From assembly GCA_038207395.1 (NCBI GenBank), contig JBBQZW010000003.1, positions 18,131 to 82,130 of the forward strand: a DNA stretch of 64,000 bases, read 5' to 3'. The notes under the pieces are model-generated. The model had not been told where the DNA came from. It ran no database searches and saw only the letters and a program-made list of their open reading frames with translations. Within the stretch, counting starts at the first letter, position 1; each line of letters begins with the position of its first letter. Below are positions 13,376 to 38,329 of this stretch, piece by piece. Position numbers and translations under genes: made by a program. The DNA comes from Minisyncoccia bacterium (GTDB lineage Bacteria; Patescibacteriota; Minisyncoccia; Phycocordibacterales; Phycocordibacteraceae).

Positions 13376-14083
13376 ATGAGTCGGCTTGTATCACTTACTT
13401 CAGCACAGAAAGAAACACTGAACGTGATTCAGACGCACACTGACACACATGGCCATTCTCCTACGGTTACCGAACTTGCTAGCATTCTTAATCTCAAATC
13501 ACTAAGAAGTGTCGGTCAGCGTATTGAAGCCCTAGAAAAGAAGGGACTAATTACTCGTGACCGATTTAAGCATCGAAGTATTAGTATTTTAAATGGGGTG
13601 AGATCACAACTCTCCTCTGACCTTATTCATATTCCGGTTATAGCGTCAGCAGGGTGTGATGCTATGGAAGTATTCGCTGAGCAAAGTTTTGGAGAATATA
13701 TTGTTATTGATAAGAGTTTGATTGGGGGAAAGAAAGATAGTTCAAACATTGCAGCGGTACGAGCTGTGGGGGATTCTATGCAAGATGCTGGCATCTTCAG
13801 TGGAGACTACGTAATTGTGGAAGTTACCGGCGAAGTTGAAAACGGAGATCGTGTTGTCGCGGTGCTCGGTAACATGGCAGTTATCAAGCGGTACTCTCGC
13901 ATAGATGAGGTTGTGTACTTAAATCCAGAAAACAAGTATGGAACGTATCACCCTATAGTAGTTCGCGAAGAAGACTCACGCATTTTCGGCAAGGTACTTT
14001 CAATCATTCCTGGAACGGAATGGGTGGACGACATCAAGGTTGAGTACTATACAGAAATTGATCAGCCAAACCAATACCGCTAA
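13376..14083 (+). CDS. lexA: LexA repressor (S24 peptidase)
   Basis: N-terminal wHTH (SPTVTELASILNLKS), then S24 autopeptidase with AVRAVGDSM (catalytic Ser) and a downstream Lys. Confidence 0.8.
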   Translation: MSRLVSLTSAQKETLNVIQTHTDTHGHSPTVTELASILNLKSLRSVGQRIEALEKKGLITRDRFKHRSISILNGVRSQLSSDLIHIPVIASAGCDAMEVFAEQSFGEYIVIDKSLIGGKKDSSNIAAVRAVGDSMQDAGIFSGDYVIVEVTGEVENGDRVVAVLGNMAVIKRYSRIDEVVYLNPENKYGTYHPIVVREEDSRIFGKVLSIIPGTEWVDDIKVEYYTEIDQPNQYR

Positions 14084-14151: not shown

Positions 14152-14700
14152 ATGGAAGATGATGTAACTATAGAGCGCGACGGTCGCGAAGAAGACGGGC
14201 TTAGTGAGGAAGACCTTGAAGCCACGGAATCACGCGTGGATTCAAAGGTGCAGAAAGGTAAGAAAGAACTTGATGCCTGCAAGAAAGAAAAGCAGGAATA
14301 TCTTGATGGATGGCAGCGTGCAAAAGCTGACTATGTGAATGCGCTAAAGCGGTTTGAGGAAGACACGAAGAATGCACGTGAACAAGGCACCGTAAAGGCA
14401 GTAAAGGCACTTCTGCCCGCATACGACGCATTAGTGCGCGCAAAGACTGCTGGTGAGGTTCCTGAGGGCTTCGCAGGCATTGCTAAGCAGCTAGAGTCTG
14501 CATTCGGAAGCTTCGGCATTACCGTTATAGGTGAAGTTGGAGAAGCGTTTGATCCTGTACGCCATGAAGCACTTGGCTCCGATATTACCGACGACCTTAC
14601 GAAAGACGACACCGTAAGCGGCATTCTAGAGCAAGGGTACACCATCGGTGAAGCCGTTCTCCGTCCCGCCCGCGTACGTGTTTACTCCCTTGAGATATAG
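14152..14700 (+). CDS. grpE: nucleotide exchange factor GrpE
   Basis: Coiled-coil N-terminus and C-terminal GEAFDPVRHEALGS...GYTIGEAVLRPARV, typical of GrpE. Confidence 0.85.
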   Translation: MEDDVTIERDGREEDGLSEEDLEATESRVDSKVQKGKKELDACKKEKQEYLDGWQRAKADYVNALKRFEEDTKNAREQGTVKAVKALLPAYDALVRAKTAGEVPEGFAGIAKQLESAFGSFGITVIGEVGEAFDPVRHEALGSDITDDLTKDDTVSGILEQGYTIGEAVLRPARVRVYSLEI

Positions 14701-14787
14701 TCAGTACTTGAATACAAAAGCGTACAGGAGTAAAATAGAACTATTGGTGCGAAGGGCAAATTACTACATTTCTAATACGAAATCTCT

Positions 14788-16692
14788 ATGGCAAAAATTC
14801 TAGGTATTGACCTGGGTACAACAAACTCCGCCATGGCCATCATGGAAGGAGGCGAACCACGCGTTATTGAAAACGCTGAGGGAGCACGTACAACTCCTTC
14901 AATCGTAGCGATAGCAAAGAACGGTGAACGTCTTGTGGGAACACTCGCAAAGCGCCAGGCCGTAACAAACCCAAAAAATACTATCTACGGTATTAAGCGC
15001 TTTATGGGTCATCGTTTTGAGGATGATGTGGTTAAGAAGGATAAGGATGTTCTTCCGTATGAAGTTAAGGCAGGTCCTGATGGAGGGGTTGTCGCACATC
15101 TTGGTGATAAGGACTATCGTCCTGAAGAAATTTCAGCGATGATCCTCACAAAGCTTAAGACCGATGCTGAAGCAAAGCTTGGCGAGAAAATCACAGAAGC
15201 CGTTATTACGGTGCCTGCATACTTTGACGACGCACAGCGAAATGCAACAAAGGCTGCCGGGGAAGTTGCAGGTCTGAAAGTTCTACGCATCATCAATGAA
15301 CCAACGGCTGCTGCGCTCGCATATGGATTTAATAAGAAGAAGGAAGAAAAGATTGTGGTGTATGACTTCGGAGGAGGAACATTCGACGTTTCTGTTCTTG
15401 AGGTGGGTGACGATGTTATCGAAGTAAAGTCTACAGACGGTGACTCACATATGGGTGGCCGCGACATTGACCAGAAAATTGTCCGCTGGATCGCTGACGA
15501 ATATAAAAAGGAAAGCGGCATTGATGTAACGAAGGACGCACTCGCGCTTCAGCGTCTTGATGAAGCTGCAGAAAAGGCAAAGCACGAGCTTTCAAGTTCT
15601 GCGGAAACGGAGATCAATATTCCGTTCATCACTTCAACGTCAGAGGGACCTCAGCACCTCCTTATTAAGCTCTCTCGCTCAACGCTCGAGCAGCTGGCGT
15701 CTGAGTATGTCACGCGTTCTATAGACATTGTTAAGCGCGCACTTGAGGCGGCTAATATGAAGGCAGGAGACATCAACGAAATTATCATGGTGGGCGGTCA
15801 GACCCGTATGCCACTCATTCAGGAAGAGGTGAAGAAAATCTTTGGAAAGGATCTTCACATGGGTGTTAACCCTGACGAGGTGGTTGCCATTGGTGCGGCT
15901 ATTCAGGCAGGTATTCTCCAAGGAGATGTTAAGGATATTCTTCTCGTGGACGTTATCCCGCTCTCACTCTCTATTGAGACCATGGGCGGCGTTGCCACCA
16001 AACTCATCGAGCGCAACACGGCAGTCCCAACCTCACGCAGTCAGACATTCTCAACTGCCGCTGATAACCAGACCAGCGTTGAGATTCATGTGGTTCAGGG
16101 AGAGCGCGCAATGGCTAACGACAACAAAGACCTAGGCAAGTTTACGCTTGATGGTATTCCACCAGCTCCGCGCGGTATGCCGCAGGTTGAGGTTTCCTTT
16201 GACCTTGATACCAACGGAATCCTCACCGTGAAGGCAAAGGATAAGACAAGTGGAAAAGAGCAGTCCATCACTATCACCGGTTCAACAGGTCTCTCTCAAG
16301 CTGACATCGACAAGATGAAAGCTGACGCGGAAACGCATGCTGATGAGGACGCAAAGCGTAAGGAGATTATCGAAGCAAAGAACCTTGCCGAGCAGCTCAT
16401 CTACACGGCTGAGAAAGCACTAAAGGATGCAGGTGACAAAGCTCCAGCTGACGTGGTTACGGAAGTAAATGAGAAAATTACGGCGCTTCGTACTGCGCGC
16501 GAAGGAGATGACCTCGCCGCAATAACGACTGCCTCAGAAGCACTCGGAACCTCTCTCTCAAAGATTGGTGAAGCAATGCAAAAGGCTCAGGCTGAGCAGG
16601 GAACAGCTGAGAGTGCACCTGCTGAAGGAACAGCTCCTGATGCTGCTGCCACCGACGCAGAGTTCACGGAGAAACCTGAAGAGGCTGCGTAA
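14788..16692 (+). CDS. dnaK: molecular chaperone DnaK (Hsp70)
   Basis: [29 protein letters not shown] and [10 protein letters not shown]-type motifs. Confidence 0.97.
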
Positions 16693-16706
16693 GTAAGTAG
16701 TAAAAA

Positions 16707-16748
16707 TAGAACAAGCACGCAGGTTTACCTGCGTGCTTGTTCTATTAT
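16707..16748 (+). terminator. rho-independent terminator
   Basis: agaacaagcacgcagg-ttta-cctgcgtgcttgttct followed by attat. Confidence 0.6.
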
Positions 16749-16792
16749 ATCTTTATGGTATAGTTTAATCTGGTTTTGTGAAAGGGAAACGT

Positions 16793-17209
16793 ATGACTAA
16801 AGTTCTTTCGATTGCAGTAATTTCAATTATTGCAATCACGCTGTGGAGCGTCGGCGAAACTATAGCTGCTCTGATTTTTTGGGTGGCAGCGTTTGCGGGT
16901 TTCCAGATGGCTCTTTTTCTCGTAGAGCAACAAAAGCTTCAGGAGGATATACCACGTGCCCTTCGTCAAACCATTACTCCCACAGGGATGATGAGTGTCG
17001 GCGACATCGCTACACAAGTTCGACATCTTCGATGCGAGCAAAAATTTGGGGAGAAGTCCATTGATCTTCTTTCTACAATCCCGCAAGTTTCCATCTTCTC
17101 AGTATCAAAAGCTCTTGATCAACTGAGAAAGAAAGGAGTTATCGAAGTCCAGTACAGTGGGTATGAACCCAAACGCAGGACCGCATATCGCCTTAAGGAA
17201 GCTGCTTGA
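16793..17209 (+). CDS. hypothetical membrane protein with C-terminal winged-helix-like segment, sitting between dnaK and dnaJ
   Basis: Two N-terminal TM helices. C-terminal ...SIFSVSKALDQLRKKGVIEV resembles a MarR/PadR-like recognition helix. Confidence 0.4.
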   Translation: MTKVLSIAVISIIAITLWSVGETIAALIFWVAAFAGFQMALFLVEQQKLQEDIPRALRQTITPTGMMSVGDIATQVRHLRCEQKFGEKSIDLLSTIPQVSIFSVSKALDQLRKKGVIEVQYSGYEPKRRTAYRLKEAA

Positions 17210-17213
17210 AGCT

Positions 17214-17255
17214 TAAAAACTCTCCTCGCGCCCATCAAAGCGCGAGGAGTTTTTC
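17214..17255 (+). terminator. rho-independent terminator
   Basis: aaaaactcctcgcgc-ccatcaaa-gcgcgaggagttttt. Confidence 0.6.
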
Positions 17256-17313
17256 ATATATATTTTAGACTTTTGCATACAAAAACTGATAGGCGTATAG
17301 TTATAGTACTCAT

Positions 17314-18393
17314 ATGGCAAAAAACTATTACGACATCCTGGGCGTTGACACAAAGGCCACGTCGGACGATGTGAAGAAAGCCTTTCGCAAACTTGCACAA
17401 AAACACCACCCTGATAAAGGGGGAGATGAGTCAAAGTTCAAGGAGATAACCGAAGCCTACAGCATTCTTTCTGATGACAAGAAACGTCGTGAGTATGACA
17501 ACTACGGCCAGACGTTTAATGGTGCTGGGCCTCAGCAGGGTCAGGGTGGAGGAAATCCGTTTGGCGGATTTGACTTCAGTGGATTCGGACAGGGAGGTGT
17601 TGAGTTTGATTTCGGCGATATCTTTGGAGGAGGATTTGGTGACATCTTTGGAGGAGGAGCTCCGCGCGCGCGCCGTGGACGCGATATTTCTATAGACATC
17701 GAAGTGAGTTTTAAAGAAGCAGTCATGGGCGGAAAGCGTGAAGTTCTCATCACGAAGATTGGTACGTGCGAAACCTGTAAAGGAGATGGTGCAAAGCCCG
17801 GCACAGAGATGAAGACCTGTGAGACTTGTAACGGCGCAGGAAAGGTTCATGAGACTCGTAACTCAATGCTAGGTGCCTTCTCAAGCGTACGCGCCTGCCC
17901 AACATGCGAAGGCTCAGGAAAGATTCCTTCAGAGGCATGTGACAACTGTAAAGGTCGGGGTGTATTAAAGAAGCAAGAGGAAATAAAAATAACCATTCCT
18001 GCAGGCATTGATGGAGGTGAGATGATCCGCATGCCAGGGCTCGGAGAAGCCATAAAGAATGGTATGTCTGGGGACTTGTATGTAAAAGTTCACGTAAAAC
18101 CGCATCCGGTGTTTAAAAAAGACGGTTTGAATCTCGTTATGCAGGCACCACTTAAACTCACCGATGCACTTCTGGGAACAACCATCTCAGTCACGACCGT
18201 TGACGACAAAGTACTCGAAGTGAAGGTCCCCGCCATGAGCGCTCCAGAAGAGACACTTCGCATTCGTAGTAAAGGAGTACACACCGAACGCGGTACCGGT
18301 GATCTTCTTATTCGTCTATCCGCAACGCTCCCTAAGAAACTTTCAAACAAGGCGAAGAAAGCTATAGAAGAACTGAAGGCAGAAGGGTTCTAA
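17314..18393 (+). CDS. dnaJ: molecular chaperone DnaJ
   Basis: J-domain with HPD, a G/F-rich region, four CxxCxGxG zinc-finger repeats. Confidence 0.95.
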   Translation: MAKNYYDILGVDTKATSDDVKKAFRKLAQKHHPDKGGDESKFKEITEAYSILSDDKKRREYDNYGQTFNGAGPQQGQGGGNPFGGFDFSGFGQGGVEFDFGDIFGGGFGDIFGGGAPRARRGRDISIDIEVSFKEAVMGGKREVLITKIGTCETCKGDGAKPGTEMKTCETCNGAGKVHETRNSMLGAFSSVRACPTCEGSGKIPSEACDNCKGRGVLKKQEEIKITIPAGIDGGEMIRMPGLGEAIKNGMSGDLYVKVHVKPHPVFKKDGLNLVMQAPLKLTDALLGTTISVTTVDDKVLEVKVPAMSAPEETLRIRSKGVHTERGTGDLLIRLSATLPKKLSNKAKKAIEELKAEGF

Positions 18394-27621: not shown

Positions 27622-28686
27622 ATGCTCTACTTTGAAGCCGCGCGCGTATTAATTCCCTTCATTGTCTCATTTTCTGTAGGCATTGTACTTGCACCGGTAC
27701 TTGCACACTATTTGTACAAATATAAGGCGTGGAAAAAGAAGGGAGGGAAAGGAAAGGGAATTGGTGACGGAAACGGCACGCCTCTTTTTGATAGTCTGCA
27801 CAAGGAACGCGAAGTTTCGACGCCGCGGCTTGGCGGTATCCTAGTCTGGACCTCAGTATTTACGACAGCGCTACTCCTTGCACTTCTTAGCTTCTTTATA
27901 GGCGGACCGTATTCTTCCCTAAACCTTGTTGACCGCGGGCAAACCTGGCTTCCGCTCTTTGCGCTTATCGTAGGAGGACTTACCGGACTCGTCGATGATG
28001 TTCTGGAGATTCGCACCTCAGCCGGAGGACTTTCTATGCGGTGGCGTCTGCTTGTGGTGGCCGTCTTCGGTGCGTTTGCCGGATGGTGGTTCTACGCAAA
28101 ACTTGGTGTTTCAAGTATCGGTGTTCCATTCTTTGGTGCTATTCCTCTTGGTGGGTTCTTTATTCTCTTTTTCGTACTTGTAACCCTAACCCTGTATGCC
28201 AGTGGTGTTATTGATGGCATTGATGGTCTGGCGGGTGGCGTCTTCTCCATCATCTTTATGGCGTATGCGGGGATTGCCTTTGCTCAAAACCAAGTCTCGC
28301 TCGCCGCATTCGCTGCCACGGTCTCAGGTGCCACGTTTGCCTTCCTTTGGTTCAACATTCCTCCTGCACGCTTTTATCTTTCGGAAACAGGTTCAATGGC
28401 CTTAACCCTTGCACTTGCCGTTACAGCGTTTTCTGCAGACTCACTTGGAGACGGAGTTGGCGTCTTTGTCCTGCCAATTATTGCGCTCCCCCTCTTTGCC
28501 ACGGTAGTCGGGAATGTACTCCAGGTATTCTGGAAAAAAGTATTTAAACGCAAACTCTTCCGTATTGCTCCTATTCATCATCATTTTGAAGCAATTGGCT
28601 GGCCTGCATATAAAGTAGCGATGCGGTACTGGATTGTAACTATCCTTGCCGGTATCTTTGGCATTGCTATCGCGCTTTTGAAGTAA
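27622..28686 (+). CDS. mraY: phospho-N-acetylmuramoyl-pentapeptide transferase
   Basis: Polytopic membrane protein with DD motif (GLVDDVLEI) and APIHHHFE. Confidence 0.93.
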   Translation: MLYFEAARVLIPFIVSFSVGIVLAPVLAHYLYKYKAWKKKGGKGKGIGDGNGTPLFDSLHKEREVSTPRLGGILVWTSVFTTALLLALLSFFIGGPYSSLNLVDRGQTWLPLFALIVGGLTGLVDDVLEIRTSAGGLSMRWRLLVVAVFGAFAGWWFYAKLGVSSIGVPFFGAIPLGGFFILFFVLVTLTLYASGVIDGIDGLAGGVFSIIFMAYAGIAFAQNQVSLAAFAATVSGATFAFLWFNIPPARFYLSETGSMALTLALAVTAFSADSLGDGVGVFVLPIIALPLFATVVGNVLQVFWKKVFKRKLFRIAPIHHHFEAIGWPAYKVAMRYWIVTILAGIFGIAIALLK

Positions 28687-28708
28687 GTTCTAACCTCACT
28701 CTGCCAGC
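28685..28708 (+). repeat. copy 0 of the AAGTTCTAAC...CAGCCAG repeat family; overlaps the mraY stop codon and sits at the left junction of the insertion
   Basis: taAGTTCTAACctcactCTGCCAGC. It shares AAGTTCTAAC and the CAG..CCAGC tail with the six internal copies. Confidence 0.6.
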
Positions 28709-30186
28709 ATTTCTGAAAAGGTAGGGTTTTGAGGTGCTAAAGCGAATATGTTGTACGGTGATTTGTATTGTATTTCCTCGATATTTCTATTGAGCAACAT
28801 AGAGTTCGATAGTGCTTCTGAGAGTATTTCTCGCTTTCGGTCAGGAAGTGCTGTCTTGTATTCATCCGCCAAGGAATTACCTTGTTTAAACTTAGAATAG
28901 ATGAGTTCGATAGTTGCGAGAGGGTCATGAGCTTTCTTCTCTAGTTCCTGCATGCGCTTGGTGAGCCGTACACTTTCATTATCAATTTCCTTTAATTTGG
29001 CTCTGTAGAGCTCGGTGTCTATGTCTCCCTCGGTGTAGGTGTCTACAAGCCTAGACTTGCGTGTAGTGAGCAATTTGAGGGCTTTCTGAGTATCTTCCAA
29101 GGCATGGTCTTGAGTACCTTTTGAATGATGTAGTTCTTCGAGCTTCGCTTTATAAACGATATCAATCATGCGCTGGCTAATCTTGAGCTTATTGAGGTCG
29201 AGAGTTATTTGTTTGTGGAGTTCAATTTCATTGGCATTGAATGAACGTTGATCGCAAATGCCTTTACCATTAGTGCAGTGATAGTAGATATATTTCTCTT
29301 TCTTGAGTTCAGCAGTAATGGCACAACCGCATTGAGCGCAGGTCATGAAGCCGGAGAGCGTGAACGAAAGAGTCTTGCCTCGTGGTTTGCTTTTCTTAGC
29401 ACAAACTTCCTGGCACTTCTGAAATAGTTCGGATGAAATAAGTGGCTCATGATTGCCTAGATATTGAATGCCATTTGATTCCATGATGCCGCAGTAGAAG
29501 GAACTAGTGAGGATTTTCTGTATACCAGATTTATATACTTTCTTGCCGGAAGAAGTGCGCAGTCCTTGTTCAAAGAGTGTCGTAGAGATTGATTGATGGC
29601 CGTGGAGCCCTGTAGCGTACATTTCAAATATCTTTTGGACGTAGGGAGCACGTGCAGTGTCTAAGGCAATAGTCTTGTTTACTTTGTCGTTTACATATCC
29701 AAAAGGAGCACGGTTAATCCAGTCGCCTCGCTTTAGTTTTTCTCTATTTCCTCGCTTAACATTTAAACTTTTCTGATCGTTCTCTAGCTTTGCTTGGGAA
29801 CACAACATCATGAGCATGAACTTGCTGTTTGGGTCGTTCTTGAATTCTTGGGAGTACGTTTTGACTGAAAGTAGTTTTCCGCTGTCCATGAGGTCTACAA
29901 GCTTTCCTAAGTCTCCTGCATTACGCGAGAGTCTGTCAGGAGCCCAGGTGAGTATTGAGTTGTACAAGCCAGAATTGATACCAGCTATCATGCGATTGAA
30001 CTCAGGGCGCATGTCAGCTTTCTTTGCTGAGTGAGATTCTCTAATTATCTCTACAACATTCAGTTCATTACGTTCTGCAATACGCTTCATCTCATTTTCC
30101 TGAGCGTCCAAGGACATTATTTGTCGCTCCTCGCTTTCTGAGGACTTACGAATGTATAAGACATAGTTTTCCATAGATAGGCGCAT
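28696..30186 (-). CDS. large serine recombinase (phage-type serine integrase)
   Basis: N-terminal resolvase catalytic domain YVLYIRKSSESEERQIMSLDAQ, a recombinase domain, a zinc ribbon (CAQCGC...YYHCTNGKGIC) and a C-terminal coiled coil. Start overlaps Rep stop by 1 nt (TAATG). Confidence 0.88.
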   Translation of the reverse strand: MRLSMENYVLYIRKSSESEERQIMSLDAQENEMKRIAERNELNVVEIIRESHSAKKADMRPEFNRMIAGINSGLYNSILTWAPDRLSRNAGDLGKLVDLMDSGKLLSVKTYSQEFKNDPNSKFMLMMLCSQAKLENDQKSLNVKRGNREKLKRGDWINRAPFGYVNDKVNKTIALDTARAPYVQKIFEMYATGLHGHQSISTTLFEQGLRTSSGKKVYKSGIQKILTSSFYCGIMESNGIQYLGNHEPLISSELFQKCQEVCAKKSKPRGKTLSFTLSGFMTCAQCGCAITAELKKEKYIYYHCTNGKGICDQRSFNANEIELHKQITLDLNKLKISQRMIDIVYKAKLEELHHSKGTQDHALEDTQKALKLLTTRKSRLVDTYTEGDIDTELYRAKLKEIDNESVRLTKRMQELEKKAHDPLATIELIYSKFKQGNSLADEYKTALPDRKREILSEALSNSMLLNRNIEEIQYKSPYNIFALAPQNPTFSEMLAE

Positions 30187-31097
30187 TATGCTCTTTCTGG
30201 GTAATTCCTCAAATCGAGAGATTCAGCAGTTTCTACTGAGTCGATATAAATCTCAGTCATTCGTCGTTTAAGCTGTTGTAGGTTCTCGTTCTTTTTGTGA
30301 AAGTCAAAAGAATCTTCAATTGAGTTAGGTGCAGTGAAAACTATAAACGGTGAATTGAGAGCTACGAATCCGCCTTTCAACTGAAGATTAAAAGGGTAGC
30401 GATCAGCGATTTGCAGTAGTTGTGCAAAGGGAACGTTTCCTTCTCGGAAGTCGTCAAACAAAAGACATTCGTCTTGTTGATACCCTGTACCTGGCCAGTG
30501 ACCATCTGATACGGAACAGATTTCAGTAAAGTTTCTGTATACAAGTGAGGTTTTTCCGACGCCTGTATTTCCATATATCCAAAATACCTTGGGTGGTATG
30601 TTTTGGTCGCGATGTCTTAAATAAATTGGCTGAAGACACTGGGCATAGCGAAGTTGCTGTTGGTTGTTTGCAAACTCATCAATAATTTTATTGAGATCTT
30701 TAGGATTTGCTTTAATAGCTTCTTTGATTTCGCTCATGTCAGTACGAGAACCTTGTTTGCTGGGTTCCCCAAACACAAAGAAGTTTCCATCCTTTTGCGT
30801 ATACGTCTCATTTGTTTCAACACTGCCATTTGCTTTTTCTACATGGAACTTGAGTAGCTCTCCATTTCGAGTGAAGTTTAAATATTTTTGTAGATATGGA
30901 ATACGCTGAGCATTCTTAAGTTCAATATATCCCTGAATGTGAGGAGTTCCGTTTTCTTCACCAATCTCCAAACCGTAGCTAATGTAGTAATGATTTTCTA
31001 ATAAAGCGGCAAGAACGTGTAATCTCTCCAAGTCCTCCTGGGAGTAATTGTTGATAGTAAAACAGTATCTACGGCTTTTAATCTGTTTCTTCTCCAT
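30186..31097 (-). CDS. rep: rolling-circle replication initiator Rep, CRESS-DNA-virus type (HUH endonuclease + SF3 helicase)
   Basis: Motif I CFTINNY, motif II PHIQGYIEL, motif III YTQKDG, Walker A GNTGVGKTS, Walker B LLFDDF, motif C FTAPNS. ATG at 31097; an upstream TTG at 31112 gives the track ORF. Confidence 0.85.
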   Translation of the reverse strand: MEKKQIKSRRYCFTINNYSQEDLERLHVLAALLENHYYISYGLEIGEENGTPHIQGYIELKNAQRIPYLQKYLNFTRNGELLKFHVEKANGSVETNETYTQKDGNFFVFGEPSKQGSRTDMSEIKEAIKANPKDLNKIIDEFANNQQQLRYAQCLQPIYLRHRDQNIPPKVFWIYGNTGVGKTSLVYRNFTEICSVSDGHWPGTGYQQDECLLFDDFREGNVPFAQLLQIADRYPFNLQLKGGFVALNSPFIVFTAPNSIEDSFDFHKKNENLQQLKRRMTEIYIDSVETAESLDLRNYPERA

Positions 31098-31119
31098 ATT
31101 AATTTTGTCCAAATGTCCC

Positions 31120-31149
31120 GAAGTCGGGGGTAATACTATCCCCGACTTC
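31120..31149 (-). other. origin-like stem-loop: 10-bp GC-rich stem with nonanucleotide TAGTATTAC in the loop (minus strand), 23 nt upstream of Rep
   Basis: Plus strand: gaagtcgggg-gtaatactat-ccccgacttc. Minus strand reads GAAGTCGGGG-ATAGTATTAC-CCCCGACTTC. The loop contains the NAGTATTAC nick motif of circo- and nanovirus origins. CCCGAC-containing direct repeats flank it. Confidence 0.6.
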
Positions 31150-31357
31150 CGTGGCGCGGTGCCGGACTAAAGTCCCGACACTCGCCCCGTCCCCAAACAA
31201 GCATCGAATGAGCGAAGCAAGGTGCAGTTGAGCATCATCCGCAGAAACGGCCACGCCTTGGGTGGCGGCCATTTCTGCCTGATACTCCTGAATTAGTGCC
31301 GTACTAAAATGCATTAGCCCACCCTATAAAAAAGGAGAGTGAGTATGGGTGAGAGGT

Positions 31358-32224
31358 TTAGTGAGGATGCTCTAAGTACCGTTCGTGCACGGCGAGGTGG
31401 TCAGCATGAACGCTGAATATTTGAGAGAGTCGTGGGTGCTTTTTAACAAAGCGATTGAGAGCATCTTTATACGATATCTTCTCCGCTTTCATTTTGTTTT
31501 GCTCAAACTCCGGTATGTCGGTATAGTCTATTCTGTTTTCACTGAACTGGTTGAATAGAGCCTTGAGCGCAAAGTGTTCCTTGTTGGGTTTGTTTTGATA
31601 TCCAACTGATACAGTTTGATCATCAAAGTGGAATTCATACCTTTCAGGGTCATACCAAATACCGGCATCTTTAACATCTTCAAAAGAAATGCCGTTATTC
31701 ATTTTCTCTAGTAATCGCTCAATACTTCTAAAGGGCGAAAGGACAATGGTTGCTACAACCTCAGGAGGGTTTCCTTTTATCGCATCTCTCGCGGCATCAA
31801 GAACATCTTTTATATTCATGTCGTTCTCTAAGAAGACTTCTTTAGGAATGAATATGTTTGCGGGTATCGTTTTCTCAATCATGTCTGTACCAGCTAAGTT
31901 TAGTGCTTCAACAAAGTCAGTTGTATCTAGATTCGCAAGTTCATTGAGAACTTTTTCATAGTTTTCATCAGCTAGAAACTTCTGAATCTCAGGGTGAGCT
32001 TTCTGTTCGAATACATAGAAGCCAACGAGATATCCTTTGCTATCAAGTTGGGTAAGGGTGTTCAAAAATACAGGAACGGTTAGAGCGGACAAGTTGATAT
32101 GCTCGTACGTGATTCGGAGCGTATGCTGCTCTTCATCCTTAAGATGGGGTACTTGTTTCCGTGCATGGAAAAGAAGCCTTAAGACGTTGAGGACAGCTAG
32201 TATGTTCTGCTCACGAGGGGTCAT
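31358..32224 (-). CDS. hypothetical protein of the mobile element (288 aa)
   Basis: No recognisable motif and no Arg-rich capsid-like N-terminus. AT-rich like Rep. Confidence 0.5.
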   Translation of the reverse strand: MTPREQNILAVLNVLRLLFHARKQVPHLKDEEQHTLRITYEHINLSALTVPVFLNTLTQLDSKGYLVGFYVFEQKAHPEIQKFLADENYEKVLNELANLDTTDFVEALNLAGTDMIEKTIPANIFIPKEVFLENDMNIKDVLDAARDAIKGNPPEVVATIVLSPFRSIERLLEKMNNGISFEDVKDAGIWYDPERYEFHFDDQTVSVGYQNKPNKEHFALKALFNQFSENRIDYTDIPEFEQNKMKAEKISYKDALNRFVKKHPRLSQIFSVHADHLAVHERYLEHPH

Positions 32225-32248
32225 ATGGGGATATTGTATAGTTATTGC

Positions 32249-33028
32249 ATGAGTTTAGAAGGACCACCACGCAAAAAGAAAACTTTCTATGAAATTCTAG
32301 GAGTAGGCGCTGATGCTTCTGATAAAGAGATTAGTGAATCTTTTAGAGAGCTTTCAAAGAAGTTTCATCCTGATAATCAGGAAAGTGGAGATGAGGAAAA
32401 GTACAAGAAAATCTCTGAGGCGTATACCGCTTTAAAAAAACCAGAATCAAGAGACAAATACGATACTCAACGAGGTCATAGTTCTGCATCAGCTAGCCCG
32501 GGAGCTACACGCCCTACATATGAGGCACGAAAACCACGGGTTATTAATCTCACGATTGAGACTAATAATGGTAAAGCCTTTATAACCAAAGAGGGTAAGC
32601 GAATTTCTAAAGAGTATGACGCAATACAAAAAGCAAAAGAAGGTATTGCTGATTTTTATATCGGTATTCTACCGAACCAAGTAGATATTTTTAATCCAAA
32701 TGGAATGTTTGATATTGTTGAAGCAAGTTATAAATCCATTGAATACAAAAATGGAATTCTGGTTGGTAAAAGCCTTTATGGGAATAGTGAAAGCCTCTTG
32801 AGTTTAAAGAGTGGAAAAGAAGTCATTGGAGGTTACACAGAGTTCAATCTAATCGACGGCCATATTGTCGGAACTAATATGTACGGCACGGGAGTTGATG
32901 TAATTGATTCTAAGACCGGATTACCCATCTCGCATAATTTTAAGACGATTGAGATAGAGGACGGCAAGCTAGTTGCAACAAGTTGGGACGGGAAGAAAGG
33001 CAGGGTTTCCGTTGAGAAAAAGAAATAA
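32249..33028 (+). CDS. J-domain (DnaJ-like) protein with C-terminal glycine-rich repeat domain
   Basis: TFYEILGVGADASDKEISESFRELSKKFHPDN is a canonical J-domain with HPD. C-terminal repeats YKNGILVGKSLYGN / LIDGHIVGTNMYGTG. ATG at 32249 preferred over 32225. Confidence 0.7.
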   Translation: MSLEGPPRKKKTFYEILGVGADASDKEISESFRELSKKFHPDNQESGDEEKYKKISEAYTALKKPESRDKYDTQRGHSSASASPGATRPTYEARKPRVINLTIETNNGKAFITKEGKRISKEYDAIQKAKEGIADFYIGILPNQVDIFNPNGMFDIVEASYKSIEYKNGILVGKSLYGNSESLLSLKSGKEVIGGYTEFNLIDGHIVGTNMYGTGVDVIDSKTGLPISHNFKTIEIEDGKLVATSWDGKKGRVSVEKKK

Positions 33029-33045
33029 TCCCTTTTCAATATACC

Positions 33046-33074
33046 CTTGACATATTCATGTAAAGGGTATATAA
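33046..33074 (+). promoter_or_regulatory. consensus sigma-70 promoter (TTGACA-17-TATAAT) embedded in a 9-bp inverted repeat
   Basis: cccTTGACAtattcatgtaaagggtaTATAATc, with tataccctt...aagggtata arms. An RBS GGGAGA precedes the ATG at 33108. Confidence 0.5.
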
Positions 33075-33107
33075 TCTTTACAAGTTCATTCAATTGGGAG
33101 AATTACA

Positions 33108-33356
33108 ATGACTCAGGCAAGTTTTGTGCTGGAAGACATCGGTTCGGAAAATCGAACCTATGAATTCAGTCAGGACATCGATTTCGCGCCTTACAATGGT
33201 ATGAAGATCGATCTCGGCAATGCTCCGCCCTGCTACGTGCACTCAGCTGTGTACAGGCTGGACGAGCGGAGCTGGAACGTTCGCCTCAAGCCACGGCACA
33301 ATGAGCAAAAGCCCGAGCCTGGAGAGCTTGAGCGGCTCGGGTGGAAGACCTATTAG
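33108..33356 (+). CDS. hypothetical small protein (82 aa), GC-rich cassette-like gene
   Basis: ORF with RBS. GC content is clearly higher than the flanks. A hairpin terminator follows at 33362-33389. Confidence 0.45.
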   Translation: MTQASFVLEDIGSENRTYEFSQDIDFAPYNGMKIDLGNAPPCYVHSAVYRLDERSWNVRLKPRHNEQKPEPGELERLGWKTY

Positions 33357-33401
33357 CTCGAAGCCCCGCTGCAGAAATGTGGCGGGGCTAATTCATTAAT
33401 A

Positions 33402-33430
33402 GAGTTCTAACATCGACCCAGACAGCCAGC
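33402..33430 (+). repeat. copy A of the 28-bp repeat
   Basis: gAGTTCTAACaTCGACCCAGACAGCCAGC. Confidence 0.7.
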
Positions 33431-33529
33431 ACCAAACCACAAAGCCCCATATGTACGTGCTAAAAGAAAGAGGCGGCCCGAAGGTCGCCTCTTTGCGCAA
33501 ATTATCCGGTGCGCATTATTTCGGAATGG

Positions 33530-33865
33530 TCAGGCTTTGAAATATTTGCCTTGCGCACGGGCTTCTCCCCTGGTCTTCCACCCATCTTCACGAAATCCAT
33601 CGTAGTCGTGAGCATACACGTAGAAGTAAAGGGTGATGTTCGGGGTCCCGTCCTCATGGCGCCAGTGGAAAATCTGCGAGACCTCATCTGCCATATCGTC
33701 GCCGAGCTGGAACATTTCGGCTTCGCGAGGAAGAACTGGCCACTCAAACTCCTTGAAAATTGGCTCGAGATCGAGCTTTTCTTTGTCCTCGCAGAATTTT
33801 TCTCCAATACGAACACAAGCTACAAACTTGATCATGTAATCCTCCATCAAAAGAGCTGGGTACAT
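33530..33865 (-). CDS. hypothetical protein (111 aa; may start at the internal Met near 33835)
   Basis: GGAGG RBS upstream of ATG at 33865. A hairpin terminator lies downstream at 33466-33495. Confidence 0.45.
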   Translation of the reverse strand: MYPALLMEDYMIKFVACVRIGEKFCEDKEKLDLEPIFKEFEWPVLPREAEMFQLGDDMADEVSQIFHWRHEDGTPNITLYFYVYAHDYDGFREDGWKTRGEARAQGKYFKA

Positions 33866-33899
33866 ATTACGTCATTAAACATATATTGTCAAGTATAAA

Positions 33900-33927
33900 A
33901 AGTTCTAACGTCGACCCAGACAGCCAC
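33900..33927 (+). repeat. copy B of the 28-bp repeat
   Basis: tataaaAAGTTCTAACGTCGACCCAGACAGCCAcg. Flanked by TTGTCAAGTATA and CTTGACTTATAC. Confidence 0.7.
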
Positions 33928-34020
33928 GGATAAGAAACTTGACTTATACTATATTTCATGCCATCTTATATACAGCGAATTTAAGGAATAAGTTAACCCT
34001 TTCACCTTACGGAGGTCTTT

Positions 34021-34206
34021 ATGCCCGAAGTTCAGAACACTCGCATGTGCGCGACCCCTACTTGCCGCACTCCGGTTACCAACCCGCAGTCAGGTTACTG
34101 CGATTCATGTCTTGAGTTCGATCAGCTGACTTACGACCTTGAAACAGCTCGTTTCCAGCAAGAGCTGGCCGATGAGGATCTTCAACGTTTAATGCAAGGG
34201 GATTAG
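34021..34206 (+). CDS. small zinc-ribbon protein (61 aa)
   Basis: CATPTCRTP...CDSC (two CxxC pairs). A GGAGG RBS lies 7 nt upstream. Confidence 0.45.
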   Translation: MPEVQNTRMCATPTCRTPVTNPQSGYCDSCLEFDQLTYDLETARFQQELADEDLQRLMQGD

Positions 34207-34270
34207 CGGTGCGAATGGAACCCGATCACGCTTTTGGCGAGGTCGGGTTTTCTCTATTTAGAGGTATAAA

Positions 34271-34296
34271 AAGTTCTAACGTCGACCTAAACAGCC
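34271..34296 (+). repeat. copy C of the 28-bp repeat (diverged tail)
   Basis: tataaaAAGTTCTAACGTCGACCtAaACAGCC. Confidence 0.65.
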
Positions 34297-34344
34297 TTGA
34301 AGTAAGAAATTCAAAAGGGAGACCATTGCTGGTCTCCCTTGGGT

Positions 34345-34605
34345 TCAGGAACGAACCCGATTTGCTCCTTCTCCTTCCGCGCCGGTTCCAGCTAGAGCGA
34401 AGATCCATGCCATGACACACAGAACGGGATTTGTGTGCCAGTAGTAGGTTGTCCCGAGGAATGCGGCAAGTAGGCGTGGACAGAAGAGCCACGCCAACCA
34501 GCTCAAGATGCCGAACGGTGTCACCACCGCAAACAGCATCGTGAGACGCGGACAGAAGAGCAGAAAGAATAGAAAGAGCCAGCCGTGGTTTGCCCAGAAG
34601 TCCAT
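34345..34605 (-). CDS. small hydrophobic membrane protein (86 aa)
   Basis: Strongly hydrophobic. RBS GGAGG before the ATG at 34605. Bidirectional hairpin gggagaccattgctggtctccc at 34318-34339. Confidence 0.4.
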   Translation of the reverse strand: MDFWANHGWLFLFFLLFCPRLTMLFAVVTPFGILSWLAWLFCPRLLAAFLGTTYYWHTNPVLCVMAWIFALAGTGAEGEGANRVRS

Positions 34606-34676
34606 GTGAAATCCTCCCTGAATAGGCGATAGCTGAGACTATATTAGCATCATTCATAGTACTTGTCAAGTATAAA

Positions 34677-34705
34677 AAGTTCTAACGTCGACCCAGACAG
34701 CCAGC
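34677..34705 (+). repeat. copy D of the 28-bp repeat
   Basis: cttgtcaagtataaaAAGTTCTAACGTCGACCCAGACAGCCAGC. Confidence 0.7.
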
Positions 34706-34731
34706 GAAAAGTATTTATTCTTGTTAATATT

Positions 34732-35124
34732 ATGTTGATGACAGAAAGTAATGTGCAGGACCAAAAACAAATGACACTTTGGGCAGCCGAATGTGCTGAA
34801 CACGTACTTTCATACTTTGAACAGGAACGGCCTGGAGACATGAGGCCGCGATTAGCGATAGAAGCAGCGCGCGCGTGGGTAAAGGGTGAACTAAAAGTTA
34901 GCGAGGCTAGGACTGCTGCGTTTGATGCTCATGACGCAGCACGCGAGGTAAAAACAGACGCAGCTATCGCTGCGGCGCGTGCAGCAGGCCACGCTGCAGC
35001 TACGGTCCATGTCATAACTCATGCTCCGCACGCGGCAGAGTATGCCGTGAAGGCTGCCGAAGCCGCGAGTATTACAGGTGAACGTAAGTGGCAAAAGACG
35101 CGCGATCAGGTATCAAGAATGTAA
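34732..35124 (+). CDS. hypothetical Ala-rich protein (about 131 aa)
   Basis: Start chosen at the internal ATG (MLMTESNVQDQKQ...) of ORF 34663..35124, because the upstream part overlaps repeat copy D. Confidence 0.4.
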   Translation: MLMTESNVQDQKQMTLWAAECAEHVLSYFEQERPGDMRPRLAIEAARAWVKGELKVSEARTAAFDAHDAAREVKTDAAIAAARAAGHAAATVHVITHAPHAAEYAVKAAEAASITGERKWQKTRDQVSRM

Positions 35125-35125
35125 T

Positions 35126-35154
35126 AAGTTCTAACGTCGACCCAGACAGCCAGC
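35126..35154 (+). repeat. copy E of the 28-bp repeat
   Basis: gtaatAAGTTCTAACGTCGACCCAGACAGCCAGC, directly after the stop codon. Confidence 0.7.
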
Positions 35155-35704
35155 AATGTTTTAAAATAAAATTCAAACAGTGAAAAAGAACGCTACTTTA
35201 GAACCGATAATATAAAAAGGTCCGTGACTTTCGCCACGGACCCTAAAAAGTGCAGATACTTTACTCAATCGCCTGCGCTAAAGACTCGCTTTCGCTGCGC
35301 CTACACCTAACGGCTTAAGCTTGCAAAGATCTGCTGGGACAGCATTTAGGCTTGGAAGATTCCGAGTGACCAATTAGGCATGGTTTCAGATCTCCCTTGT
35401 TCGACTCTTACGAGCTCCTCGGCTCAAATGAATGGCTTTGGAATATGAGCTCTGCCGAGGCTCACACCTACTCTGTAGCTTTCGCCTCATCCACATGCGC
35501 AGTATCCTGCTCATGTTTGCGGGTACGGGACGGAGCCCTTATGGAGGACCCTCCTCTATGGATTTCCCCTGGATTATCGATATGCTAAAGGCCTGGACCG
35601 GTTTCAATATACGGCACTTACTCCCGGTATCTCGGTTGATGTCCACGCTGTCCAGTATTAAGAATACTTCGACTCTAACAGCTGTCAATGTGAGGATGTG
35701 AGGA

Positions 35705-35732
35705 AAGTTCCAACGTTGTCCCAGACAGCCAG
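35705..35732 (+). repeat. copy F of the 28-bp repeat (most diverged)
   Basis: AAGTTCcAACGTtGtCCCAGACAGCCAG. Confidence 0.6.
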
Positions 35733-35740
35733 TGCCACTC

Positions 35741-36115
35741 CTAAATCTTTCGTGCTCCTGTAGGAAAGGTTGTTATCCGTCGAGTAATTAATCCTGTAGC
35801 TCCAAAGTAAAAGTATTCTTGAAATTGAACATCCACCGACTCGCCGTTTTTAAGTGAGCCAGAAAATCTTCCCGTTGTTGATACTGCGTTTGGCAGCGTT
35901 GTTACAAGAATATCGGTATGCGTTCCATGCGCGATTATCCTTTCTTCACTATAGAATTTTTTAAACGCAGTCATTCCTTGGAGTGGAGTAGTGCCATCCC
36001 GCAAGTATTCGATCTCATTATCAAATAATGCATAGAGTGATTTGTAATCACCTTCGTCAATATACCGGTAGTAGTTCAGTACGGCTTCTTTCCACAAAGT
36101 GGCCTGCTCGCTCAT
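35741..36115 (-). CDS. NTF2-like / SnoaL-like superfamily protein
   Basis: MSEQATLWKEAVLNYYRYIDEGDYKSLYALFDNEIEYLRDGTTPLQGMTAFKKFY is a typical SnoaL-like N-terminus. Confidence 0.5.
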   Translation of the reverse strand: MSEQATLWKEAVLNYYRYIDEGDYKSLYALFDNEIEYLRDGTTPLQGMTAFKKFYSEERIIAHGTHTDILVTTLPNAVSTTGRFSGSLKNGESVDVQFQEYFYFGATGLITRRITTFPTGARKI

Positions 36116-36200
36116 AGATATAGTATATAACCTCTAGGGCAGAGCTTTTATGTGATATCCGTAGCCCTACTTTGTTAGTAATGCACTATACTTACTCACA

Positions 36201-36404
36201 ATGAGCACCGAGACCCATTTTATAAACGAGCTTGGCAACACTATTCATATTCAAGTTGAGGAACAAGAAATACAGGATCATCCAGGCATCCTGATTACTA
36301 TTACAGGGCCCGACTCTACCTCTACTAACCACATTACGTGCGAAGAAGCTGAGGTTTTGCAGGGACTGCTTTCTAAAACACTACATATCAGTAACTCAGA
36401 CTAG
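36201..36404 (+). CDS. hypothetical small protein (67 aa)
   Basis: ORF only. Confidence 0.3.
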   Translation: MSTETHFINELGNTIHIQVEEQEIQDHPGILITITGPDSTSTNHITCEEAEVLQGLLSKTLHISNSD

Positions 36405-36446
36405 TTAGAGTAGTTTGGTTTCGCATTCGTTTGCTAGAATAGGGGA

Positions 36447-37559
36447 ATGAAAGTTACAGGAGACAAGATCTTTGCGAGTATTGTACTCATCTTAGTGATT
36501 GGAGGTATTGCGCTCTTTTCCTCAGCGGCGCTTGGGCTTCTTGCACGTGTTGATGGCTCTCCCTGGAGGCTTGTTATTTCTCAAATCGGTCTTGGGCTTA
36601 TCCCCGGCTTTATACTCCTCACCGCTTTTCGTTTTCTACCTCAGAAACGACTCGCTCAATTCATTACACCTTTTTACGTAGTGACTATTATCCTTACGCT
36701 CATTGTCTTTATTCCGCATATCGGCCTTACCTTAAACGGTGCACGGCGATGGATTAATCTCGGGTTTACTACCTTTCAGCCAAGCGAGTTCCTAAAGCTC
36801 AGTGTTGTGCTCATGCTTGCAGCGTACCTCGCTCATGCAAAAGGAAAGATCAAAGAAATTCGCACAGGACTTGTACCATTTGGGGTCATTGTTGGGATTC
36901 CGTGTGCGCTACTTCTTTTTCAGCCAAATACTTCAACGGTATTAATTATTGGCTTAACCTCGGCAACCATGTACTTCCTTGCAGGAGCACCGTGGCGGGA
37001 CTTTGCCATCATGGCAGTTGCGAGTGTTGCGTTACTTGTTGTGCTCGTTATCGCGCGCCCGTATCTTATGGAGCGCGTTACCACGTTCATAAATCCTAAA
37101 AACAATGCGCAAACAAGCGGGTACCACATTCAGCAGTCACTTATCGCTATTGGATCTGGAAAAATAACGGGCCGGGGGTTTGGACAAAGTGTACAGAAGT
37201 TTAATTACCTTCCGGAAGCTGAAAGCGACTCAGTATTCGCCGTATACGGAGAAGAGTTTGGATTCTTAGGTACCGTTCTGCTGGTTATGCTTTTCATTGC
37301 CTTTGCGTTGCGAGGACTTATTATTGCCGGTGAGTCGTCTTCACTATTTGGTTCATACGCAGTTACCGGTCTGACCCTTTTGATTACGTTCTCGGCATTT
37401 ATGAATATTGGGGCATTGCTTGGCATTCTCCCCTTAACCGGACTTCCGCTCCCATTCATTAGTCACGGAGGAACGGCACTTATGGCCGCTCTTATGGCTG
37501 TGGGAATAATTCTCAACATCGCTGCACATCGAACAAAGCGAAAAACTCAGCTGGCATAA
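36447..37559 (+). CDS. ftsW: SEDS-family peptidoglycan glycosyltransferase FtsW/RodA
   Basis: Ten-TM profile, GFGQSVQKFNYLPEAESDSVFAVYGEEFGFLG and PFISHGGTALMA motifs. Confidence 0.9.
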   Translation: MKVTGDKIFASIVLILVIGGIALFSSAALGLLARVDGSPWRLVISQIGLGLIPGFILLTAFRFLPQKRLAQFITPFYVVTIILTLIVFIPHIGLTLNGARRWINLGFTTFQPSEFLKLSVVLMLAAYLAHAKGKIKEIRTGLVPFGVIVGIPCALLLFQPNTSTVLIIGLTSATMYFLAGAPWRDFAIMAVASVALLVVLVIARPYLMERVTTFINPKNNAQTSGYHIQQSLIAIGSGKITGRGFGQSVQKFNYLPEAESDSVFAVYGEEFGFLGTVLLVMLFIAFALRGLIIAGESSSLFGSYAVTGLTLLITFSAFMNIGALLGILPLTGLPLPFISHGGTALMAALMAVGIILNIAAHRTKRKTQLA

Positions 37560-37561
37560 CC

Positions 37562-38329
37562 ATGAACATTATTTGTCTAAACATCTGGGGAGGCAGAGCA
37601 GGTAAGGAGAAATTACTCGCATTCTTTGAAACACATAAAGAAACTACTGATATTTTTTGCCTCCAGGAAGTTTGGTCAGACCGCTATGAGTTCCTTGAAG
37701 GAGCACTTGCCGGAGGCGTACCTATTAGCCACGACACTATTATGTCGTATGCACTCCAAGACATATGCGCCGTACTCCCTGATCATGTACCGTATTTCAA
37801 GCCAAGCTTCTTACATAGTTATGGACTGTGTATGTTCGTCCATAAAAAGCTAAACGTGATTGAAGAAGGTGATATATTCGTGCACTTTGCACGTGGGTAC
37901 ATACCTGAAGGTGATGTAGGGAATCACGCGCGCAACATGCAGTATGTGACCATAGAGACCGAGCTCGGACCTAAGACCGTTCTTAACCTGCACGGACTAT
38001 GGAATGGAGCAGGGAAGTCAGACTCAGATCAGCGCATCGTGCAGACTGACCGCATACTTAGCTTTATTTCTTCACTTTCAAACCCCTTTGTACTGTGCGG
38101 AGATTTTAATCTCTCCCCAGACACTGAGAGTTTGCAAAGAATTGAACGAGAAGGGCATCGAAACCTTATTTCCGAATATGGCATTACCTCTACCCGTACG
38201 AGTTTTTACACGAAGCCTGAGCGATATGCTGACTACGCATTTGTTAGTGAAGGAGTTGAAGTTCTTGGATTCGAAATACTTCCAGACGAAGTCTCTGACC
38301 ATGCACCGCTTCGCATCGAGATTGCGTGA
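37562..38329 (+). CDS. endonuclease/exonuclease/phosphatase (EEP) family protein
   Basis: IICLNIWGG...DIFCLQEV (N-terminal Mg-binding motif) and SDHAPLRIEI (C-terminal catalytic His) are EEP hallmarks. Confidence 0.75.
   Translation: MNIICLNIWGGRAGKEKLLAFFETHKETTDIFCLQEVWSDRYEFLEGALAGGVPISHDTIMSYALQDICAVLPDHVPYFKPSFLHSYGLCMFVHKKLNVIEEGDIFVHFARGYIPEGDVGNHARNMQYVTIETELGPKTVLNLHGLWNGAGKSDSDQRIVQTDRILSFISSLSNPFVLCGDFNLSPDTESLQRIEREGHRNLISEYGITSTRTSFYTKPERYADYAFVSEGVEVLGFEILPDEVSDHAPLRIEIA

Follow-up and report, generated by a model that had tools for sequence, protein, structure and literature searches.

The 64,000-nucleotide window analysed here (assembly GCA_038207395.1 of a Minisyncoccia bacterium, contig JBBQZW010000003.1, positions 18,131 to 82,130 of the forward strand; coordinates below count from the first letter of this stretch) carries a gene for a J-domain protein, hereafter the J gene, as part of a mobile element. 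The element, an integrative plasmid of 4,722 bp from a bacterium of the Paceibacterota (Patescibacteria), encodes a large serine recombinase (LSR) together with a CRESS-type Rep. We read the J gene as optional accessory cargo and not as a component of core replication, with a probability of roughly 0.6, and its product most likely acts as a class C J-domain co-chaperone.

A preliminary description of this locus, made from the sequence alone, had assigned the J gene to a mobile element, and this assignment stands because the gene lies inside a circle with an attP junction. A look-up with Rep led to L174, a 4,752-bp contig from another metagenome sample (SRR19962014), which is 100% identical to 28703..33431 of the window and whose ends are identical over 30 bp, giving a closed circle of 4,722 bp. 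At its attP junction, CATTAATAGAGTTCTAACATCGACCCAGACAGCCAGCA is joined to TTTCTGAAAAGG (in full, ...CATTAATAGAGTTCTAACATCGACCCAGACA-GCCAGCA-TTTCTGAAAAGG...), combining the left side of the site at 33404-33431 with the right side of the site at 28687-28709, an arrangement that does not occur in the integrated copy. The junction is the product of site-specific recombination whether L174 represents a circle or a tandem duplication, as the same junction is expected from both. The motif at 33404 was also considered as the host attB and was rejected, since the circular contig shows it to be the P arm of attP. The recombinase domains, the core GCCAGCA at both ends and the attP junction in L174 together mark an LSR-driven integrative element; the LSR is predicted to carry out both integration and excision, and would do so at the att site resembling a tRNA 3' end, with the core GCCAGCA. 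The C-terminal codons of the LSR gene (FSEML...) coincide with the conserved P' arm ...CAGCATTTCTGAAAA. The circle holds the LSR, Rep, ORF71, ORF288, the J gene and ORF82, with the J gene between ORF288 and attP (ORF, open reading frame):

28687..28709, plus strand: attL, GTTCTAACCTCACTCT-GCCAGCA, between the MraY stop (28686) and the LSR stop, defined by comparison of the window with L174; its copy of the core shared with attR is at 28703-28709
28696..30186, minus strand: LSR, 496 aa (Pfam Resolvase, Recombinase and Zn_ribbon_recom; PHROG integrase, E = 4.6e-84)
30186..31112, minus strand: CRESS-type Rep with HUH endonuclease and SF3 helicase (Pfam Viral_Rep and RNA_helicase); probable ATG at 31097, 303 aa
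31099..31314, minus strand: ORF71, a conserved small ORF overlapping the origin, with tblastn/blastp matches in 15 related loci
31120..31149, minus strand: origin stem-loop GAAGTCGGGG-ATAGTATTAC-CCCCGACTTC, 23-52 nt upstream of the Rep ATG, with the nonanucleotide TAGTATTAC in its loop
31358..32224, minus strand: ORF288, a conserved core gene; at least 10 loci have a homolog (30-68% identity) upstream of Rep
32249..33028, plus strand: J gene, 259 aa (by Pfam, motif, structure prediction and dN/dS)
33039..33075, plus strand: 10-bp perfect inverted repeat (ATATACCCTT...AAGGGTATAT) overlapping a promoter, just after the J stop
33108..33356, plus strand: ORF82, the second cargo gene on the circle, GC 0.54, present on L174
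33404..33431, plus strand: attR, GTTCTAACATCGACCCAGACA-GCCAGCA, which in the circular form provides attP with its P arm and core

The J gene starts at 32249 and not at 32225, because its homolog on contig L142 begins at the corresponding ATG and the sequences upstream of it are unrelated. The start codon lies 24 nt from that of ORF288, so that the J gene is divergent from the Rep operon and its four opposite-strand genes, as the preliminary description had it. Within the protein, the following parts are recognised:

32285-32464, plus strand: J-domain, approximately residues 13-72
32366-32374, plus strand: HPD tripeptide, residues 40-42, in the context KKFHPDNQ
residues 76-92: disordered linker
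approximately residues 96-255: beta-repeat domain, all-beta, with at least 3 repeats of ~35 aa

This agrees with the earlier picture of a canonical J-domain fused to a C-terminal repeat domain foreign to DnaJ. The N-terminus matches Pfam DnaJ (PF00226) with 68 bits (E = 7.7e-19, cut-off 27.8), the protein has the four-helix J fold, and the HPD tripeptide sits between predicted helices at 25-39 and 49-63, that is, in the loop between helices II and III. The C-terminal domain has no Pfam match at E <= 10, and a Pfam scan of 9 members of the J + beta-repeat family returned scattered chance matches only. The domains of class A and B DnaJ proteins, PF00684 and PF01556, were not found in the J-protein and are both present in the host DnaJ; by exclusion, the element-encoded protein would therefore be a class C (type III) J-domain protein. 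The C-terminal repeats are reminiscent in pattern of the WG type, but the Pfam profile for WG-type beta repeats (WG_beta_rep) gave no match at E <= 10 in the window J-protein or 8 relatives, and fold comparison yielded weak similarity to beta-propeller blades. The J-protein matches eight PHROG families. Compared with its closest homolog, P0122 from L142, the J gene has a dN/dS of 0.095 (0.06 and 0.11 for the two domains), and both the J-domain and the beta-repeat domain are under purifying selection. The J-domain is 44% identical to that of the host DnaJ and is therefore not a recent copy of it.

Proteins of this architecture are rare. Of 1.8 billion representatives scanned in full with HMMER, only 10 resembled the C-terminal domain at E <= 1e-3; a word-indexed search for homologs of this domain returned the J-protein itself alone, and the same kind of search with a 9-sequence profile found the J-protein, P0122 and P0132 only. 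P0122 is 61% identical to the J-protein over the full length, J-domain included, and is encoded on three short contigs (L142-L144) that carry no LSR, Rep or ORF288. To its left lies a truncated 3' portion of tRNA-Gln followed by CAGCATTTCTGAAAAATAGC, which matches the last codons of an LSR gene and is an attL remnant; to its right, an att-like motif copy is found 25 nt past the stop, followed by more motif-bounded cassettes. The P0122 gene forms a cassette of its own, delimited by the motif and lacking Rep. L142 and L144 (1-130) diverge upstream exactly at ...CCAGCA, with the tRNA-Gln 3' end in one and a motif copy in the other, which suggests that recombination swaps tRNA 3' ends and motif sites. 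More remote relatives with an N-terminal J-domain and 33-35-aa repeats are P0123, P0125, P0126, P0129 and P0130, from the representative search, and P0132, from a later profile search. The neighbours of P0132 (L176) are metabolic genes, those of P0130 (L177) are largely unannotated and include no called Rep or recombinase, and P0125 is on a 1.3-kb contig too short for gene context. Given the settings of P0132 and P0130, the J + beta-repeat architecture is a rare cellular type of class C J-protein that was acquired as mobile cargo.

The position of the J gene corresponds to a variable cargo slot. Across 26 distinct related Rep loci, the conserved module is (ORF288)-ORF71-Rep-LSR, and the LSR directly follows Rep in nearly every locus long enough to reach it. 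Between this core and the distal att motif, the relatives hold differing genes:

L083: PIN + DUF3644-like
L084: PIN_8 + DUF2726
L089: AbiTii
L093: AAA_15/AAA_21 ATPase
L171: HTH + ThsB_TIR-like + SLATT/DUF4231
L178: DUF559-like

The slot therefore holds variable cargo, mostly toxin, abortive-infection and defence-type genes in the relatives. A hidden Markov model of the J-domain, which picked up the J gene in L174 and L142-L144 as well as host DnaJ genes in the control loci, was positive in 0 of the 26 elements, including about 14 in which at least 3.3 kb of the cargo side is covered. Because the slot is variable and the closest homolog occurs without Rep, replication probably does not require the J gene.

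J-domain proteins determine the targets of Hsp70, and mobile elements with their own J-protein can redirect the host chaperone. Following the established J-domain mechanism, from which both DnaK docking and client capture are inferred here, the beta-repeat domain would bind a specific client, while the HPD-bearing J-domain would dock on ATP-bound host DnaK, the presumed partner, and trigger ATP hydrolysis; the client could then be passed on to, or be remodelled by, the Hsp70 machinery of the host. In this way, the J-protein may serve the element or the host optionally, through chaperone hijacking, establishment or conflict. The present case, a J-protein with a rare client domain on a 4.7-kb circle with a CRESS-type Rep and an LSR in a genome-reduced host, makes the question of the client experimentally tractable.

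The content of the slot also bears on a narrower reading, in which the J-protein is conflict cargo, that is, a defence, abortive-infection or counter-defence factor or an Rki-like manipulator of chaperone regulation. The beta-repeat domain might sense a protein of a phage or rival element and divert that protein or DnaK, or titration of DnaK might reprogramme the stress response. Such a role would suit a slot that in relatives holds AbiTii, PIN/PIN_8, DUF2726, AAA_15/AAA_21 and TIR-like + SLATT genes, as well as the Imm5-like immunity gene in the adjoining array, and the phage J-protein Rki offers a precedent for manipulating DnaK regulation (PMC3486835). However, PADLOC gave no match for the J gene, ORF82, ORF288 or the array genes, this analysis came across no known defence system that includes a J-domain component, and the remote relatives are located among metabolic (L176) or mostly unannotated (L177) genes, not in evident defence islands. 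We regard a conflict role as doubtful.

Somewhat less probable again is a dedicated replication co-chaperone, which would recruit DnaK to assemble, activate or recycle the complex of the Rep SF3 helicase and the origin, by analogy with the polyomavirus T-antigen J-domain, lambda P/DnaB release and P1 RepA activation. The J gene shares a 4.7-kb circle with Rep and the TAGTATTAC origin and is divergent from the Rep operon with only the short spacer between start codons, passengers are costly to so tiny an element, and chaperone-dependent remodelling of initiators is established for lambda, P1, F and RK2. The preliminary description had likewise seen a functional pair in the J-protein and the SF3-helicase Rep and had proposed a search for J-domain proteins in relatives encoding Rep; that search came back empty in all 26 elements, and the nearest J homolog does without Rep. 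Thus, of the earlier interpretation, the origin from a mobile element was borne out and the pairing in the manner of the polyomavirus T antigen was not. The comparison cautions that co-occurrence of a J-domain and an SF3 helicase does not amount to a T-antigen-like partnership.

The chromosomal site of insertion lies between two host genes:

27622..28686: mraY, left flank of the insertion
36447..37559: ftsW, right flank

In 80 related genomes sampled, both genes could be located in 76, where the gap between them measures 42-2,442 bp, mostly less than 700 bp, against ~7.7 kb in the window. Neither the LSR, Rep, ORF288 nor the C-terminal domain of the J-protein was present at this site in any of the 76, and the suspicion that the J gene might be a conserved host gene was thereby not confirmed. 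That the J gene is an ordinary chromosomal gene adjoining the integrated element, or an assembly artefact, as the chromosomal, non-syntenic array at 33.4-36.4 kb and the lack of Rep and LSR beside the nearest homolog might suggest, is hardly credible given its place between ORF288 and attP on a circular contig of 100% identity, its element-like GC content (0.38, with 0.39 for Rep and 0.43 for the LSR, against a host mean of 0.47, sd 0.023) and its absence from the mraY-ftsW site in 76/76 assessable related genomes.

Several known kinds of J-protein invite comparison. Rki (gp057w) of the T4-like phage RB43 is a phage-encoded J-domain protein that stabilises sigma-32 (Perrody et al. 2012, PMC3486835). 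Like the element-encoded protein, it is a stand-alone J-protein on a mobile entity, with an N-terminal J-domain bearing HPD and an unrelated C-terminal part; it is accessory, not universal among relatives, and acts through host DnaK, as we infer for the protein described here. Rki differs in that its C-terminal part is not a beta-repeat and its carrier is a large lytic phage instead of a 4.7-kb integrative Rep plasmid, and no sequence relationship between the two proteins was seen beyond the J-domain. The large and small T antigens of polyomaviruses similarly place a J-domain in a small circular replicon with an SF3-helicase initiator, but there the J-domain is fused to origin-binding and SF3 helicase domains, whereas here it is encoded by a separate gene on the opposite strand that is missing from 26 related elements. 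As in bacterial class C J-domain proteins (DjlA, HscB and specialised proteins unrelated to CbpA), the J-domain is the sole part shared with DnaJ and is attached to a private client or location domain, although the beta-repeat domain matches none of their client domains. J-proteins carried by viruses are already well documented, from RB43 Rki and the polyomavirus T antigens to BFVD, where they are common among phage and giant-virus entries, and PHROGs, where they are common as well. New here are the rare C-terminal domain, the unusually small element and the Patescibacteria host.

The replication module of the element is itself of interest. In an alignment of 47 Rep homologs, the HUH, tyrosine, Walker A/B and Arg-finger columns are all invariant (H53/Q55, Y99, G181-K182 and D215-D216 among the invariant positions). 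Altogether, 128 Rep homologs were found, ~90 of them with identities of 43-75%; many of the latter come from contigs measuring tens of kb to 1 Mb, and those of the closer contigs that are named are labelled Paceibacterota or Minisyncoccia. The remaining homologs, ~30% identical, come from small contigs (1-4.5 kb), one of which is named Circoviridae. A scan of viral contigs (IMG/VR) with the Rep profile recovered no close relatives, its matches being CRESS-like contigs only, at <=40% identity over partial segments and <=32% over most of Rep.

The nonanucleotide TAGTATTAC is the canonical one of circovirus and nanovirus origins, and the stem-loop adjoining rep in the element answers to the CRESS origin pattern, a stem-loop with the nonanucleotide NANTATTAC. 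A hairpin scan of 11 elements found an identical or very similar stem with a TA(G/C)TATT(A/G)C-type loop just upstream of rep in every one (11/11); the elements sharing it with the window are L083, L084, L086, L088, L089, L090, L093, L101, L171 and L178. Replication presumably proceeds by rolling circle, through the CRESS-type Rep and the TAGTATTAC origin hairpin. The hairpin at 33039-33075 was also entertained as the Rep origin and was ruled out by the conserved TAGTATTAC hairpin upstream of Rep in every scanned relative. The inverted repeat after the J stop encloses a promoter with a 12/12 match to the sigma-70 consensus (TTGACA-17-TATAAT) facing ORF82, and may be an operator-controlled promoter.

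No capsid gene was recognised. ORF288, ORF71 and ORF82 have no match in Pfam, PHROG or, in the case of ORF288, a profile search against PDB sequences; the PDB-sequence comparison gave nothing for the other two either, and PADLOC likewise gave no family for ORF82. The single-sequence AlphaFold2 model of ORF288 (pLDDT 38) is uninformative and too poor to judge by. Since no capsid-like gene is recognisable and IMG/VR holds no close relatives, the element forms a new lineage among the integrated plasmids whose Reps resemble those of viruses, the pCRESS, which were reported from four bacterial phyla (Kazlauskas et al. 2019, PMC6668415). A text search of that paper found no mention of Parcubacteria or candidate phyla. 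The common features are an HUH + SF3 Rep akin to those of CRESS-DNA viruses, site-specific chromosomal integration and the lack of a recognisable capsid gene; the family described here differs in pairing Rep with an LSR, in att sites at tRNA 3' ends or tRNA-3'-like motifs and in the TAGTATTAC origin. A family of bacterial integrative plasmids with this origin bears on the plasmid origin of CRESS-DNA viruses.

Most of the related elements are inserted right at the 3' terminus of a tRNA gene, which overlaps the stop codon of the LSR:

tRNA-Gln: L082, L089, L090, L093, L101, L104, L171
tRNA-Asn: L102
tRNA-Ser: L087
tRNA-Pro: L178

The copy in the window is integrated otherwise, at a tRNA-3'-like site directly after the mraY stop. 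The element in L083 (12404-13102 region) abuts lexA; no tRNA was called there, although the junction looks like the 3' end of a tRNA or a minihelix. At the usual position of ORF288, ARAGORN called an 83-nt tRNA-Gly (anticodon ACC) in L088 (9244-9326) and L094 (3176-3258), which may be a tRNA carried by the element or a spurious prediction.

Beside the element, the att motif recurs in a chromosomal array. Six direct copies of a ~28-nt motif, GTTCYAACRTCGWCCCAGACAGCCAGCA, occur in 33404-35734 at a spacing of 371-579 bp, with a degenerate copy at 28687-28709. This motif is the att site of the element and resembles a tRNA 3' end (T-loop and acceptor 3' strand). The copies in the array separate small gene cassettes (ORF111, ORF61, Imm5_like, SnoaL and ORF67), including the following:

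33432..36429, plus strand: the array as a whole, not on the circle, with five att-like motif copies at 33902, 34273, 34679, 35128 and 35707
34663-35124: Imm5_like immunity protein, E = 1.2e-39
35741-36115: SnoaL-like protein
36201-36404: ORF67, phrog_12635

The array is not in the mraY-ftsW gap of the closest relatives. Similar motif arrays are found in the related genomes L012, L015, L026 (6 copies) and L042, with no Rep or LSR within 10 kb, and one motif copy stands at the distal end of every Rep-LSR element with enough flank. In L019, a homolog of ORF67 begins ~20 nt after a motif copy (17451).

The motif array looks like a serine-recombinase cassette array. Tentatively, the J gene might be one cassette of an undescribed integron-like exchange system in Patescibacteria, in which an LSR on a CRESS-type Rep mini-plasmid would recombine at a ~28-nt motif mimicking a tRNA 3' end (GTTCNAAC...GCCAGCA), assembling chromosomal arrays of single genes and moving cargo, such as this J-protein with its presumed hijacking of Hsp70, onto and off the replicating circle. 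As in integron arrays, the J homolog and its neighbouring small genes form one-gene units split by a ~28-nt motif resembling a recombination site, and the arrays vary between genomes. Unlike in integrons, there is no tyrosine integrase IntI, the sole recombinase being of the serine type, and the 28-nt direct motif mimics a tRNA 3' end and forms no attC-type imperfect palindrome or hairpin; the cassettes are presumed to be mobile. In the literature searched, no paper was found that describes the element family or a serine-recombinase cassette array. Together with the origin, the delimitation of gene cassettes by tRNA-mimicking att motifs may matter more than the J gene itself.

The host has its own complete chaperone set, grpE-dnaK-dnaJ, intact in the window at 14152..18393, as had been noted in the preliminary description:

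14152..14700, plus strand: grpE (Pfam GrpE)
14788..16692, plus strand: dnaK (Pfam HSP70)
16778..17209, plus strand: ORF of 143 aa between dnaK and dnaJ, without a Pfam match
17314..18393, plus strand: type I dnaJ (Pfam DnaJ, DnaJ_CXXCXGXG and DnaJ_C)

Upstream of grpE lies lexA (13376-14083). The best matches of MraY are in metagenome-assembled genomes of Parcubacteria, Kaiserbacteria and Paceibacterota. On the other side of the insertion, the ftsW-murG interval contains a gene of the endonuclease/exonuclease/phosphatase family (37562-38329), a homolog of which is present in 2/80 related loci (L002 and L025).
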